DNA of 64,000 nt from Pseudomonadota bacterium (GTDB lineage Bacteria > Bdellovibrionota > Bdellovibrionia > Bdellovibrionales > SG-bin7): contig JAWXAY010000100.1 in NCBI GenBank assembly GCA_034439715.1, positions 55,353 to 119,352 on the forward strand. The letters run 5' to 3'. A program made the position numbers. Of the stretch, positions 18,001 to 24,000 are shown in pieces (the first letter of the stretch is position 1; each line of letters begins with the position of its first letter).

Positions 18001-21000
18001 AAAAAACCCGGCATTAATGAGTGCGACCCGGACGCGTGTGGCTTGACTGTATGTATATAGCGATGTGCCTCCGTCCTTCAACTCGCGAGATATCCTGCGA
18101 ATTTTTTCAAAACACTTGCTGGTCCACATCTCTTGATTCACATTTGGAGAATAGGGATCAAAGAAAATAAGGTGAGGTCTTTGAACTTCAGTAGCGATGG
18201 TTTCTAAAAATTCACCTTGGCGAAGTTCCCAAAATACTTTCTGGTTAGACCAATAGCCTTGAGTTAAGATTGCCTCAATAGCTCCCTCAAATCCCCTGAA
18301 GTGTTCAAACTTTGCTGTATGATAATGGGCAAACTTGAGAAGTTCTAAATCTCTTTCAAAACTTATGAGTCGGAGAGCACGAGTTCTAGCGCAAGATATA
18401 GCAGCAAGAGCGTTAGCCGCAGCACCTAGGCCAACATCAAATACTACTAATTCTTCAGTGGCAGATTCAGTTAAGCGCTGCTTGAGGTTAGATTGATCTA
18501 TGTAAAGTGCGTTGGCCTCAATCCAGGGGCCGACGGGATTGTGCATGATTTCGTTTACTTCGATGTTACGAATAGAAATCGCTCCAGTGGTAGTTGTTAC
18601 AATTTCAAATTTAGGATTGTCCAAGTGAATTTACCTCGAGCTTGGTCATACCACGTAAGAGCCGTTTGTAGAAAGTAAAACTCCCTTGCCAACTGCCGTC
18701 AGTTGATGCAAAAAGTCCTTTCTATGTCAAAGCTGAAAATCAAGCTGTCAAAGAGTCTTCGTAAGACCATCATGCGTGGCCACCCATGGGTTTATAAAGA
18801 AGCGATTTTGCAACCAGGAATGGTTGAGCGAGCGCAACTTTGCGAAGTTGCAGATCCTAAGGGCGAGTTTGCCTGGGCAATTTTTGATCCTCATGGCCCG
18901 CTTTCTCTTCGTATTTTGAGTACGGCAAAAGCGGCGCCCACAAATATATTTTTTGAAAAACGGTTTGTGCGCGCCTTTAATATTAGAAATAGCGTGAGGG
19001 CAGAGCACACTAATTCTTATCGTTTATTTAATGGTGAGGGAGATCTTTTGCCGGGACTTGTTTGTGATATTTATGGACCGGTAGCAGTTTTACAGTTTGA
19101 CGGACAGGGTCCTAGCGAGTTTTGGGATAAAAAGTTTGTGGCCGACTGGTTGCTCAGTCGTTCGGGATGTCAAACAGTGATTGAAAAAACTCGGCGGAAT
19201 ACGGAACGAACGACGGAACATATTGCAGGCGATTCGACTGAGAATGAAGTGCTGATCAAAGAAAATGGCGTTCATTTTAAAGTGAATATCGAAAAGGGTC
19301 AAAAGACCGGATTTTTTTTAGATCAAAGAGAGAATCGAAACCACATACGTCATTTGTGTGCCGGTAAAAGTGTGTTAAATCTTTTTAGTTATACCGGTGG
19401 TTTTTCTGTTTACGCAGGTCTTGGCGGCGCAAAACGAGTGGCAAGCCTTGATGTATCACGTGGTGCCATCAATATGGCAGAAGAAAACTGGGCGCTTAAT
19501 GGACTTGATAAATCTAAACACACAGGTCTTTGCGTTGATGTCTTTGAGTATTTAAATGGCCCACGTGAAATGTGGGACCACATTATTGTGGACCCGCCCT
19601 CGATGGGTCATGCCGAAAATCAAAGGGAAATGGCAAAATTAAAATATGTCGAACTTTTTGCGGCGGCGGCACAACGGGTAAATTCGGGAGGTGCGCTAAG
19701 TTTAAGTTCTTGCTCCAGCCATGTTTCATTTAATGATTTTTTTGAAATAGTTGATGAGGCCCTTTCAAATTCGCGAAGAACGGGGCAGATCCTGCGAGTG
19801 TCGGGTCAGGGCATTGATCATCCCTTTCCCCATGCCTGTCACGAACTTAGGTATTTAAAGTTCGTGCATTTAGTGCTTGATTAGAGTTTGCAGTCTTAAG
19901 AAAGCACCGACGGCAAACAAAGTTGCTGCTACATTACGCCCACTCTTTCGCAGTGCTTCTTTAAAAAGAAACTGGTACCTTAGAGGCAAATTCACTATTC
20001 TTTTTTTAGAGATACCTAAGGGATTTTAAATTGGATCAAGAAATATTTGAGTGGCTGCTTTTATTAGGTCGATGGCTTCATATCACTGTCGCCATGGCGT
20101 GGATTGGCGCTTCATTCTTTTTCATGTGGCTCGATCGTACGCTTCAAAATAATGAACTCTGGATGGTCCACGGCGGCGGATTTTACCAAGTTAAAAAACA
20201 TCTCATGGGTCCGACAAGGGTTCCCAATCATTTGCACTGGTTTAAATGGGAGTCGTATTGGACCTGGCTCAGCGGACTTTTTTTAGTCATTCTGGTTTTT
20301 TATACCGGTAATGGTACTTTTCTTTTAGATTCGTCGGTTTCACAGGTCACTTACTGGCAGGCCGTTGGCATAAGTGTGGCATCGATGCTGGTATCCTGGC
20401 TGTATTATGATTTTTTATGGGAAAGTAAACTTGCTAAAAATAAACCTATAGTTGGGCACTTGCTAACTTTGTTGTGGTTTGTGGGTATGTCTTACTTTTT
20501 ATGTCATACTCTCAGCGGTAGAGCTGCGTATATTCATGTTGGTGGCATGCTTGGTACCTGGATGACCGCTAATGTGTTTTTGCGAATCATTCCTCGTCAA
20601 CTTAAAATGGTTGAGGCCGCAAAGCTTGGCGAGACGGTAAATCAAGAGTGGAGCAAGAACGCTAAGAATCGATCGACTCACAATACCTATTTTACCTTAC
20701 CTGTGATTTTCATAATGCTCAGCAATCACTTTCCGATGACCTATGGTCATAACTTCAACTGGCTCATTCTATTAGTTATCAGCGCGGCTGGTGCTGCGAT
20801 TCGTGAGTATTTTGTAGTTCGTCTGCAAAACCCTATTCGTGCGAAAATATTCGCTGCCGTCGGGGTCGTGTTGATTTTGGGAGTTATGTTTTTTACCAAG
20901 CAGAAGACACTTGTTCCCATAGAAACATATTCGGCTAAAGTTTCTGTAGAAAATCTTGGTCCAACGGCAAATGTTAAAGGTGTTGTAAAGTTTGTAGGAC

Positions 21001-24000
21001 CAGTACCGGTGGGCGAAAAGTTGCAGTTACCATTGGAGTGTAGGCAGGGCCGCGAGGGCGAGACTTTTTCAAATGAAGTTGTGGTTAATAACGGTAGGAT
21101 AAAAAATGTACTGATAAGAATCACCAAGGGGCTTGAAGGCAAAGTTTTTGGCGATGTGCCCGAGACTCCCGTACTCTTGGATCAAATAGATTGTCTCTAT
21201 GAACCAAGGGTGATTGGTGTTCGAGTTGGCCAAAAAATAGAAATTATTAATAGTGATTCTTTATTTCACAATGTGCGAGCGCTTACCAAAAACAATGAAG
21301 AGTTTAATATTTCAATGCCACAAAAAAACGATCGCTTTACTAAAGTATTTATGAAACCCGAAGTATTTTTACAAACAAAGTGTAGTGTACATCCCTGGAT
21401 GAGTGCCTATATTGCCGTTATAGAACACCCCTTTTTTAGCGTTACTAATGATACTGGCGAGTTTTTGATTAAGGATTTACCTTATGGGAACTATGCACTT
21501 GAAATTTGGCACGAAGTGTTCGGCGTTCAGACAAAAGAGATATCAGTAACTAAAGATCAGGATATTGAGTTTACCTTCAAAAGGGAGTGACATGATAAGC
21601 ACACATATTTTAGACACAAGTAAGGGCGTGCCAGCCGCAGGCATACCCGTTAAGTTAAGGTTTAGAAATGGGGACTCGTGGGCGGAGTTAGCGGTTGGAA
21701 AAACCAACTCTGACGGGCGATGCTCCTTTGAGTGCGAAATTGCTATGGGCATTTATAAAATTGTTTTTGAGGTGGAAGAATATCTCAAAAAACAAACTAA
21801 AGATTATTTTTACTCAAAAGTACCAGTCGTATTTAAGGTAACAGATGTTGGCCGCAAGTATCACGTGCCACTACTCTTGAATCCGTTTGGCTACTCCACT
21901 TATAGAGGTAGCTGAAATCTGAAAACAAGAGAGATTCCTTACTATCAAGACTATGTGACAGATGCGTTATTGAATTATTTGAAGCGCGAAAGCCGTCCAG
22001 TTGTCGGCGTATCTGAGTTGATGGAAGTCGGAAAAGGAGGAGGACTTGAGAATAAAGAATCGTTAAAATTTTTGTGTGAATTATACGACCAGCTAAAAGA
22101 GAATCTTAATCAAGTTTTAAACCAGAGAAAAACTGATCGTCACTTTATCGATCAGCGAACCCGCGCTTGTTATGAGCTCAATAAAAACCTTGGTATCGAT
22201 TTTATATCTCCTCAATACGAAACAATTATTGGCCATGAGGATGCAAATGGCCGAATCGTTATCGGCCCCAAAAATGATTTTTATGCAAAAAGTGGTGGCG
22301 GTAAACCTATTGCGCAATTGCCCGATTTTTTACAGGGTCACCACGTGACTTTATTTGGTCCGCCAGATGATGCCAAACTTTCTATAAATGCCATGAATGC
22401 CTTTTATAGAAAAACCAAGGACGAACCTGAAATCGTATCGGAACTACTTTCAACCCACTTGAGTAATCCCAAGTGGGGTGCCGACGATGAAGATTCTAAG
22501 ACGCCACTTAGAGCTGATTTAGTTGCGGCCGGTGAAAATCTTACCAGGTGTTTTGCTGGCGATCTTGAGTATACCGATCCCAAAACACAAAAAAAATATG
22601 CGCTAGAAAAGGGACGACTCGCTCTCCCTATTAAGCGATTCCCGGGTTTAGCTTTACCCTGTACTTTTCTGCTATATCGAGACAATCCGCTGCCGCTTCA
22701 CCTTTACGATTTTGCTCTTCATCTTTTTGAGAATTGGCATAACGAACAAGCGTTATCGTTTTATGTGCCTAAGCTCGAAAATGAAGAAGAGGCCCGATAT
22801 ATTTACTTGATGTGCGACACTGCAGAGGCGATGATTCAAAAACTCCACCCCGAGTATAAAAAGGGCGCCATCAGGCTGTTTGTCGTTCTAGAAAATCCTC
22901 GGGCGATTTTTCGTGTCAATGAAATCATGGATGCACTTTACCCTTATTTTGCTGGCGCCTCTCTAGGCTGGCACGATTATTTAAGCTCCGCCGCTCGTTT
23001 GTTTAAGAATGATGCTAACTATCGGATTCCTGTTAAAGCTGATCCAGATATAGTAATTAAATATATTAAGGCTTCACATGATTTGCTGGCACAGGTTGTT
23101 GGTTCGCGTGGTGGAGTCAAAATTGGTGGAATGTACGGCGTTCTGCCAATGGATAGTGATCTGTTTAGTCCCTCATACCAAATTGCCATAAAGGGTTTTA
23201 TAAAAGATGTCGTTACCGAGCTTAAAAGAAATCTCTCAGGTTTTTGGGTGGCACATCCCGATTTTATTCGGTGTGCACTGGCCATAGTTGAAAGCTGGAA
23301 ATTTTATCAGTCAGGTGATAAATCAAAACTAGATACCTTGGTCACCTGCCTTTTAGATAAAAAATACCATAAGGAAATTAGGGAGTTTATCCATGCCCGC
23401 GATTTGGCGGGACTCGACGTCAATGACCCGCTCTATGCAAGGTCATTGATTGTCGCCGATATTAAAGAATCGACGTTTATTGCCAATAATCATCCCGATG
23501 AAATTCGTTACAATGTGTTTCAGTCTCTGCAGTATTTGACGGATTGGTTAAGTGGCAATGGTTGTGTGGCGTTACCAGCCGAAATAGAGGGTGTGCCGGT
23601 ACGAGTAATGGATGATTTGGCTACGGCCGAACGCTCCCGGTGGGAGGTCTGGCATGAGCTGCACCACGGTCGCTTTAATCTAGAGGAATTTTTGAAAATT
23701 GCGCATGAAGAGATGATATTTATACGCAAAGATCTTTCGAACTCAAAAAAAATCGTACAGGTTAAGTGGAATGAGCGGACTGAAAAATGGTACCCAGTGG
23801 CCATGAGGCTAATGATTGAACTAATGACTAGCCCGGCGCCAGTTGAATTTGCGACTGAGCTTTTAATGTCATTTACAGTGGACTCGATTAGGCAAGAAGC
23901 AGATCCTCTTTTGGCATTGAGTAAGATAGATCCCGGCAAACTTGCTTTGAATTCATATATAGAGCGCTTTAATTACTATTTTTTAATTTGCGGCAATCTT

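Follow-up and report, generated by a model that had tools for sequence, protein, structure and literature searches.

The puuD gene of the window (the whole 64,000-nucleotide stretch of Bdellovibrionota DNA that was analysed) codes for a protein of the PuuD family of membrane urate oxidases which carries a cupredoxin domain in the place of the cytochrome c domain. We propose that electrons from urate would leave this enzyme through a periplasmic type-1 copper and pass to the respiratory chain, and we put the probability of the proposal as a whole at roughly three in four. To our knowledge, of the four types of urate oxidase PuuD is the one understood least, and we know of no structure, no purified enzyme and no cofactor of its membrane domain.

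The PuuD of Agrobacterium fabrum (Atu2314) is an integral-membrane cytochrome c urate oxidase, and in the paper describing it the C-terminal cytochrome c domain (CXXCH, distal Met) is called invariant and is treated as essential (PMC4562309). The enzymology presented there rests on genetics in one organism, and a Nout-Cout topology with the C-terminal domain on the outside is predicted. The words "copper", "cupredoxin" and "plastocyanin" occur 0 times each in that paper, and no description of a copper-type PuuD was found in the searchable literature. It should be noted that automatic annotation already flags the variant as "uncharacterized membrane protein/plastocyanin".

Table 1. Features of the puuD region, numbered along the window.
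Feature	Position	Strand	Basis or remark
puuD, copper type	20031..21590	+	single 519-aa ORF; start TTG, stop TGA
PuuD membrane domain (Urate_ox_N/DUF989), res. 5-287, about 8 helices	20043..20891	+	Pfam; helices in AF2 model
Variable linker, res. 288-310	20892..20960	+	unconserved and gap-rich in 26-row alignment; pLDDT <50 at res. 291-306
Predicted N-terminal sandwich strands (transthyretin/CarboxypepD_reg-like), res. 311-377, including invariant Cys337	20961..21161	+	AF2 strands res. 312-322, 361-366
Cupredoxin domain (sequence and predicted fold), res. 378-465, including invariant Cys388	21162..21425	+	VIA-align, Foldseek, phmmer
His413 codon (CAC), putative first type-1 copper ligand, followed by invariant Asn414	21267..21269	+	aligns to "HN" of 5fc9 and amicyanin
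Putative ligand loop Cys451-Ser-Val-His454-Pro-Trp-Met457 (CSVHPWM)	21381..21401	+	aligns to amicyanin CTPHPFM and NirK CTLHPWM
Predicted C-terminal sandwich strands, res. 466-519	21426..21587	+	Pfam below cut-offs; fold match 5aq0_B
5-Hydroxyisourate hydrolase	21592..21915	+	TIGR02962, 129.5 bits (cut-off 87.45); Pfam Transthyretin
1513-aa fusion: malate-synthase-like, OHCU decarboxylase, beta-lactamase-like, allantoicase and F5/8 type C domains	21955..26496	+	domain profiles

Domains of the copper-type PuuD

The TTG start of puuD lines up with the methionine of its relatives (MDQEIFEW...) in the 26-row alignment of full-length proteins, and the strand opposite the gene has stop codons throughout. 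An artefact of assembly or ORF calling was rejected, the same architecture being confirmed by motif in 54 other sampled genomes.

Judged by its sequence the membrane domain is that of a genuine PuuD. Urate_ox_N matches it over profile positions 3-292 of 295 with 342.4 bits (Pfam cut-off 26.9), and it has every one of the 31 residues which do not vary among 144 PuuD domains of the copper, cytochrome c and tail-less types. CxxCH occurs 0 times in the 519 residues, the only cysteines of which are 158, 337, 388 and 451, and no cytochrome c family of Pfam matches; the initial annotation of this DNA (342 bits over residues 5-287, no haem c motif) was correct on these points. With Urate_ox_N present and CXXCH absent the protein thus belongs to the PuuD family by its catalytic domain, and the definition of a "cytochrome c urate oxidase" does not cover it. 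A search of PDB sequences with the membrane domain gave 0 matches at E <= 10, and an NCBIfam scan found no model naming the protein, the best being amicyanin TIGR02657 with 17 bits against 110.2.

The C-terminal domain is a cupredoxin, both by sequence and by its predicted fold. The AF2 model of residues 300-519 has a pLDDT of 95.0 and a pTM of 0.90 (89.3 was the earlier pLDDT, with a different alignment, and the same PDB families were found). Foldseek against the PDB gives NirK (6hbe), amicyanins (TMt 0.69-0.71), 5fc9 (0.70) and plastocyanins (0.72-0.80), and VIA-align gives Z-scores of 11-13 over model residues 79-166, among them plastocyanin 1b3i with Z 12.2 (rmsd 1.6, 85 residues aligned) and amicyanin 1aac with Z 11.8. 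The similarity in sequence to amicyanin and plastocyanin is weak (E 0.02-0.2), and phmmer finds 5fc9 at E 2e-5. The Pfam scan, which ended at E 0.01 and so did not extend to the E 0.19 given for Copper-bind in the initial annotation, showed no match of copper-type PuuD to Copper-bind at E <= 0.01, and the cut-offs of the curated copper models (Pfam Copper-bind, NCBIfam amicyanin) are not reached; a stand-alone relative, P0131, passes Copper-bind with 24.5 bits against 21.2.

His413, Cys451, His454 and Met457 make up a putative type-1 copper site with an amicyanin-type C-x2-H-x2-M loop, exactly as first annotated. In the alignment these residues fall on the ligand positions of amicyanin, NirK and 5fc9, with the amicyanin ligands in their usual numbering. 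The likeness to amicyanin- and plastocyanin-type cupredoxins includes the fold (Z 11.8-12.2) and the Asn after the first His ligand, and the PuuD loop matches that of amicyanin in length and pattern. The four ligands, like Cys337 and Cys388, do not vary among 26 full-length relatives, nor across 40 stand-alone relatives (41-row alignment), which agrees with an earlier alignment of 31 sequences in which the ligands and two further cysteines were constant.

Unlike amicyanin and plastocyanin the cupredoxin of PuuD is not free; it is tethered to a membrane enzyme and, according to the model, sits inside a discontinuous transthyretin/CarboxypepD_reg-like sandwich. The initial annotation had both domains, but placed the sandwich after the cupredoxin, which in the model the sandwich encloses. 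The transthyretin-like domain of carboxypeptidase D (5aq0_B) aligns with Z 10.3 and rmsd 2.1 over 78 of 82 residues, and 1qmu_A with Z 10.2; both matches extend over model residues 14..220, of which only some 78 are aligned. CarbopepD_reg_2 is seen at E 3.4e-5 on residues 459-516, below the Pfam cut-off, and this family and CarboxypepD_reg reach 24.2 and 24.1 bits (cut-offs 32.2 and 32.3), with the last ~58 profile positions only. Trp493-His494-Glu495 is invariant among the PuuD relatives.

The copper-type PuuD and the A. fabrum protein share their layout, in which an 8-helix Urate_ox_N/DUF989 domain is followed, after a variable linker, by a C-terminal redox domain with a predicted location outside the membrane; both are also linked to genes for hydroxyisourate hydrolase and OHCU decarboxylase. 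They differ in that a copper module of ~205 aa (cupredoxin and sandwich) without CxxCH is found here and a cytochrome c domain of ~75 aa there (PMC4562309). The full-length AF2 model, built with 26 close relatives, is too weak (pLDDT 69.4, pTM 0.54) to show how the copper and membrane domains dock.

The copper module outside PuuD

The initial annotation counted 147 database proteins with this C-terminal region, a number which was reproduced exactly but which greatly understates the spread of the module. The 120 listed among them all carry PF06181 and none a cytochrome c family, as annotated, and they are named either "urate hydroxylase PuuD" or "uncharacterized membrane protein/plastocyanin". 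The whole module has 11,468 representatives, which form an uncharacterised family of mostly exported stand-alone proteins of ~260 aa; C-x2-H-x2-M is retained in 145 of the best 150. Among 107 short representatives 97 begin with M; of these 97, the N-terminus is hydrophobic in 93, and 47 show a lipobox-like motif. The protein Atlas clusters of the relatives are labelled "hypothetical protein" only.

Stand-alone proteins such as P0130, P0131 and P0137, called "plastocyanin/azurin family copper-binding protein" or hypothetical by automatic naming, share the whole three-part module with PuuD at 35-53% identity, including the invariant Cys pair and identical copper ligands. They differ from the PuuD module in being separate, exported, often lipoprotein-like and unfused. 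The module of PuuD was probably recruited from this large family. A tree of 200 copper modules is poorly resolved, with most PuuD-fused modules clustering together (79-87 rows, support 53-90) and five PuuD representatives placed outside, with weak support; because of this poor resolution we claim neither a single nor a multiple origin for the fusion. Several "solo" rows within the PuuD cluster look like PuuD fragments from short contigs.

The module is also found fused to cytochrome oxidase subunit II in P0148, whose sequence includes CDVHPWM, a CuA motif and a signal peptide, and elsewhere to a PQQ propeller and to a cytochrome with 8 CxxCH. These fusions to oxidase subunits, propellers and multihaem cytochromes argue for a role as electron carrier. 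Redox-partner-fused copper nitrite reductases (6hbe, 9cck) and caa3 oxidases likewise have a small one-electron carrier, cupredoxin or cytochrome c, joined to the enzyme which it serves; in PuuD, however, the catalytic partner is an unrelated membrane domain and the carrier would accept electrons, not donate them.

Gene neighbourhood and the route of the electrons

The order puuD, hydroxyisourate hydrolase, malate-synthase-like/OHCU-decarboxylase fusion is conserved. A hydrolase homologue is present at 47 of 61 other copper-type loci (most with 1.5-kb flanks only) and at all 11 Bdellovibrionota loci of the copper type that have 3-kb flanks, and in each of these 11 the malate-synthase-like and OHCU parts are in one ORF. 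In the window the likely ATG start of the hydrolase lies 1 nt past the puuD stop (the listed ORF begins at TTG 21565). A promoter and terminator scan of positions 19700-28700 found no site in the 146-nt gap 5' of puuD, and the counts were about those expected from shuffled sequence. A gene for a copper-type P1B ATPase lies 7.5 kb downstream.

In the proposed mechanism the 8-helix domain would oxidise urate to 5-hydroxyisourate and the products of the next two genes would process it. The type-1 copper of His413, Cys451, His454 and Met457, with its loop of amicyanin length, would stand in for the cytochrome c domain as the taker of electrons; its periplasmic location is predicted from the topology of the described PuuD by homology. 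The electrons would pass singly from copper to the respiratory chain, and by such a route water would be made rather than H2O2. The analysis shows the identities of the domains, how far the ligands are conserved, the setting of the gene and its distribution; that the site binds copper, lies outside the membrane and passes electrons in this direction to this acceptor is inferred. The most likely recipient is the caa3-type oxidase of the genome, which is a guess. The genome has COX1, a CoxII with a fused cytochrome c and SCO1, and FixO of the cbb3 type was not found in its 111 contigs (95.7% complete), which does not prove it absent. Loss of cytochrome c maturation as the cause of the domain swap was rejected for this genome, since a cytochrome c assembly gene (Cytochrom_C_asm) and the cytochrome c domain on CoxII are present.

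The blue copper could also be redox-active and yet not be wired to a respiratory oxidase, serving another periplasmic acceptor or scavenging reactive oxygen formed as urate is oxidised. Superoxide scavenging is raised as an alternative role of the redox domain in the discussion of PMC4562309, tail-less PuuDs exist, and 5fc9, the solved structure closest in sequence, bears the title of a "purple cupredoxin", not of a classical carrier. But 5fc9 has Arg where PuuD has an invariant axial Met, the module is fused to oxidase subunit II and dehydrogenase-type domains as well, and the same paper argues that the redox domain is essential; we regard this explanation as unlikely.

Still less probable is that the module is a non-redox cupredoxin fold with a copper-handling or structural role, like copper chaperones or CopI-like proteins, and that the electrons exit otherwise, e.g., to quinone. 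The full His/Cys/His/Met set and the Asn after the first His are invariant, the best matches in sequence and fold are electron carriers and domains of redox enzymes, and the module occupies the exact position of the cytochrome c domain. Against these observations stand the chaperones and metal binders CupA, EfeO and FtrB among the structural matches (Z 9.7-11.5), the P1B ATPase gene downstream and, again, the tail-less PuuDs.

That the DUF989 domain of this lineage acts on a substrate other than urate, its name being given by homology, has in our judgement the slightest chance: the activity was assigned genetically in one organism, shorter DUF989 proteins in other contexts are mentioned in the discussion of PMC4562309 and the tail-less relative G066 has no adjoining urate genes, but every PuuD-invariant residue is kept, a conserved linkage ties the gene to hydroxyisourate hydrolase and OHCU decarboxylase, and puuD is the sole Urate_ox_N gene of the 95.7%-complete genome, in which the Uricase family had 0 matches and no other known urate oxidase family was found (FAD-dependent HpxO/HpyO lay outside the search).

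Distribution and significance

A sample of 400 genomes of the phylum yielded 54 verified PuuDs of the copper type, 23 of the cytochrome c type and ~11 tail-less ones. Copper-type PuuD is a common natural variant in Bdellovibrio-like bacteria, and the tail-less proteins show that a fused redox domain is not obligatory. In a tree of the membrane domain (LG+G4 model, 144 rows) the AU test rejects a single clade of copper forms (p = 0.002), which occupy at least 2 or 3 places. The suggestion in the initial annotation of a copper variant class of PuuD holds in that cupredoxin replaces cytochrome c, but the copper forms are not a single class on the tree.

We also entertain, at rather less than even odds, a wider idea. 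Haem c and blue copper may have been exchanged more than once as the exit domain of one membrane enzyme within one phylum, and the copper version may be drawn from very widespread "sandwich-embedded amicyanin-like" exported carriers, joined also to cytochrome oxidase subunit II, PQQ dehydrogenase-type propellers and multihaem cytochromes. These would be a general, overlooked class of periplasmic carriers with PuuD as the first assignable partner.

A natural blue-copper version implies that the exit domain of PuuD is interchangeable, which speaks for simple one-electron transfer as its task. A blue-copper centre would give a strong optical and EPR handle on urate-driven electron flow. The annotation "urate hydroxylase PuuD" would hide a different metal need, for copper and not for haem c maturation, and the copper-type PuuD would be the first functional anchor for a family of thousands of unnamed copper proteins.

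The urate oxidase and its neighbours

The puuD gene codes for the membrane urate oxidase, which in its described form carries a C-terminal cytochrome c. Its start is aligned with the initiator Met of its relatives, and the strand opposite to it has many stops and is closed. The membrane domain (Urate_ox_N) covers residues 5-287 with 342.4 bits in Pfam. It is encoded by one gene only in the genome (111 contigs, 95.7% complete), in which a search for the Uricase family gave 0 matches. When 144 non-identical membrane domains from PuuDs of every architecture are aligned, 31 residues are invariant, among them His17, His47, His69 and His233, and all 31 are kept in the query.

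Features of the puuD region (window coordinates)
Feature	Position	Strand	Remarks
puuD, copper type	20031-21590	+	single 519-aa ORF, TTG start, TGA stop
Trp493-His494-Glu495 of PuuD	21507-21515		last sheet of the sandwich
5-hydroxyisourate hydrolase	probable ATG at 21592	+	1 base after puuD stop
1513-aa fusion: malate-synthase-like, OHCU decarboxylase, beta-lactamase-like, allantoicase (two repeats), F5/8 type C	21955-26496	+	single ORF
Heavy-metal P1B-type ATPase	29151-31418	+	YHS and HMBD metal-binding domains; 7.5 kb downstream of puuD

The longest ORF of the hydrolase begins with a TTG at 21565 and overlaps puuD by 26 nt. Since the family match starts at residue 9-11, and the ATG at 21592 gives the N-terminus MISTHILD, the overlap (21565-21591) is probably an artefact of ORF calling. 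By its domain content the 1513-aa ORF is a "Rosetta stone" fusion, joining late purine catabolism to a glyoxylate-consuming type of domain. The arrangement recurs: at the other copper-type loci (n = 61, mostly with 1.5-kb flanks) a hydrolase homologue is found in 47 and a malate-synthase-like part in 39, and the order puuD, hydrolase, one ORF with malate-synthase-like and OHCU parts holds at 11 of the 11 Bdellovibrionota loci with 3-kb flanks. By every test run (membrane domain, sole copy, gene context and invariant residues) the query thus qualifies as a urate oxidase. The P1B-type ATPase further downstream could be a candidate supplier or exporter of copper.

Fold and ligands of the copper tail

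The initial annotation held that the tail has no haem c motif and instead a complete type-1 copper site, and both statements stand. There are 0 CxxCH in the protein, whose only cysteines are 158, 337, 388 and 451, and the four ligands His413, Cys451, His454 and Met457 are present, the last three in the loop Cys-Ser-Val-His-Pro-Trp-Met. The claimed invariance of the ligands also holds when the query tail is aligned with 40 stand-alone relatives; Cys337, Cys388, Asn407, Asp409, Asn414 and Trp456 are invariant there as well. The pair Cys337/Cys388 may form a disulfide.

In Pfam the tail gives sub-threshold CarboxypepD_reg-type matches alone (residues 459-516). The best match among PDB sequences in phmmer is 5fc9, a Nitrosopumilus blue-copper domain protein (E 2e-5), followed by the C-terminal cupredoxin of NirK and by amicyanins (E 0.014-0.2). 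In these alignments His413-Asn414 stands opposite the HN of the 5fc9, NirK and amicyanin matches, and Cys451, His454 and Met457 opposite CTPHPFM of amicyanin and CTLHPWM of NirK, whereas 5fc9 has an Arg at the position where the query has Met.

An AF2 model of residues 300-519, built from a 41-row alignment, has a pLDDT of 95.0 and a pTM of 0.90. As first reported, Foldseek finds cupredoxins for it in the PDB: the 126 matches at E <= 1e-3 are headed by NirK 6hbe, amicyanins, 5fc9 and plastocyanins. A second structural aligner, independent of Foldseek, told two folds apart. The cupredoxin matches cover residues 79-166 of the model (378-465 of the protein), with Z scores of 13.1 (6hbe), 12.2 (plastocyanin 1b3i), 12.0 (5fc9) and 11.8 (amicyanin 1aac). 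The transthyretin-like matches, for example the carboxypeptidase D domain 5aq0_B (Z 10.3, rmsd 2.1), align about 78 residues scattered across model residues 14-220. The cupredoxin domain is thereby borne out, but not the idea that a sandwich merely follows it: from the alignment ranges of the two folds, not from coordinates, we infer that the cupredoxin is inserted into the sandwich, with predicted strands at residues 312-322 and 361-366 before it and at 469-517 after it. Trp493-His494-Glu495 is invariant in 26 PuuD relatives, and in stand-alone module proteins its Trp-His reaches a conservation of 90% or more; the triplet might serve in docking or as a further metal-binding site.

Relatives, distribution and descent

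The count of 147 database proteins with the C-terminal region was reproduced (E <= 1e-3). PF06181 is present in all 120 that were listed and a cytochrome c family in 0, and their names are, as noted before, "urate hydroxylase PuuD" (Bdellovibrio, Bacteriovorax, Oligoflexia and one Xanthomonadaceae MAG) or "uncharacterized membrane protein/plastocyanin". The copper module, that is, cupredoxin plus sandwich, belongs to a far larger family. At E <= 1e-3 an exhaustive HMMER search with residues 300-519 matched 11,468 cluster representatives, of which 5,897 are left at <= 1e-10 and 770 at <= 1e-30. The best 150 of the 11,468 are mostly of 240-300 aa with the whole module matched, and 145 of these 150 keep C-x2-H-x2-M. 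Ten of the best are on record as "plastocyanin", "plastocyanin/azurin family copper-binding protein" or hypothetical, and the closest protein-Atlas clusters are all labelled "hypothetical protein". Among representatives of up to 320 aa, a set which includes some sure PuuD fragments from short contigs such as P0123 (550-aa cluster mate), 97 of 107 start with Met; of these 97, the N-terminal stretch is hydrophobic in 93 and a lipobox-like motif is present in 47. Elsewhere the module lies ahead of a cytochrome oxidase subunit II with its CuA motif (P0148), after a PQQ-type beta-propeller (P0236), after an eight-CxxCH multihaem cytochrome in a protein of 1912 aa (P0265), or in two copies after an anti-sigma zinc finger, zf-HC2 (P0122). 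Judged by their domains, these fusion partners are as expected for a periplasmic one-electron carrier. The query genome has the module in puuD alone.

In 400 other genomes sampled from the phylum puuD loci were searched and fetched, and tails were classified by motif: copper type if C-x2-H-x2-M and no CxxCH follows the membrane domain, cytochrome c type if CxxCH does. The copper type was verified in 54 genomes and the cytochrome c type in 23; one locus cut at a contig end (G365) and genomes with fragments only (G212, G309, G195, G025, G393, G207) were left out of the classes. About 11 genomes have a tail-less PuuD (G066, G133, G306, G348, G091, G171, G130, G046, G175, G179 and G062, the last with a short unmatched tail). 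These forms (loci L047 in G066, L048 in G133, L083, L159-L163, L167, L168) have about 291-353 aa, end just past helix VIII and carry neither cytochrome c nor copper module. Non-urate genes flank the one in G066, and several tail-less genomes have stand-alone copper modules on other contigs. G270 has both types (loci L071 and L154), a copper-type PuuD with a 577-aa frame and a cytochrome c-type PuuD with a 475-aa frame; none of the classified PuuDs has both motifs in one protein.

By genome record the copper type occurs in Bdellovibrionales, Bacteriovoracaceae and Halobacteriovoraceae MAGs. Outside these groups it was found in a "Lysobacteraceae" MAG (63% identity), with downstream genes of Bdellovibrionota type, and in an "Acidobacteria bacterium" MAG (46%), where the context differs and allantoicase and OHCU are separate genes (L073 and L084); both could be due to gene transfer or binning error. 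The 67 matches in Pseudomonadota, Verrucomicrobiota and SAR324 (L085-L151) all belong to the cytochrome c type.

A maximum likelihood tree of 63 membrane domains, rooted at midpoint only and with groups set by tail motif ahead of any tree building, splits into A and B with support 100/99, and a quick tree of 144 rows agrees with it. Group A contains 18 cytochrome c forms from Bdellovibrionota and 7 copper forms (a six-member clade of one family, plus G165). The main copper clade, within which the query and the three tail-less forms are nested, is in group B together with the Pseudomonadota/SAR324 cytochrome c forms. A single copper clade appears in 0 of 200 bootstrap trees, and monophyly of copper plus tail-less forms is rejected by the AU test (log-likelihood difference 49.3, p = 0.002). 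The copper variant proposed in the initial annotation is real and conserved, but the copper forms are not one class. The module tree is weakly resolved and compatible with one fusion moved between puuD lineages or with several fusions. We conclude that the exit domain was exchanged at least twice; with midpoint roots no direction is claimed.

Electron exit and meaning

The paper defining PuuD predicts an Nout-Cout topology with the redox domain outside, and argues that this domain couples urate oxidation to an electron-transfer chain without release of H2O2 (PMC4562309). By homology the copper module would likewise be periplasmic, in keeping with the exported stand-alone relatives and the conserved Cys pair.

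The amicyanin loop is the shortest classical type-1 loop. The query loop has the same length and an axial Met, and the copper centre is therefore expected to be an ordinary blue electron-transfer site, not an open catalytic one. Among its genes the genome counts those of a caa3-type oxidase (COX1, CoxII with fused cytochrome c, and SCO1 adjoining) and a cytochrome c assembly gene; FixO was looked for in the 111 contigs and not found. Inability to make cytochrome c does not explain the swap, since the assembly gene and the CoxII cytochrome c are there. Urate oxidation is a two-electron reaction, and the carrier steps would be one-electron steps. Electrons from urate would enter the PuuD membrane domain and pass to the type-1 copper, from there to the CoxII cytochrome c domain or a soluble carrier, and finally to O2.

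Replacement of cytochrome c by a cupredoxin is well known from respiration and photosynthesis, which makes the variant moderately surprising. The mixture of domains can already be seen in automatic annotation ("membrane protein/plastocyanin" at JGI, "urate hydroxylase PuuD" at NCBI). A full-text literature search, judged by its listings and with subscription journals outside its coverage, found no description of copper-type PuuD or of the copper module, and as far as searched the type is undescribed in print. Copper-type PuuD is a variant, and a widespread one, within an enzyme class already known; it corrects the picture of an "invariant cytochrome c" in PuuD, offers an experimental handle on the enzyme, and makes PuuD the first partner for a copper protein family that is very large and unnamed.
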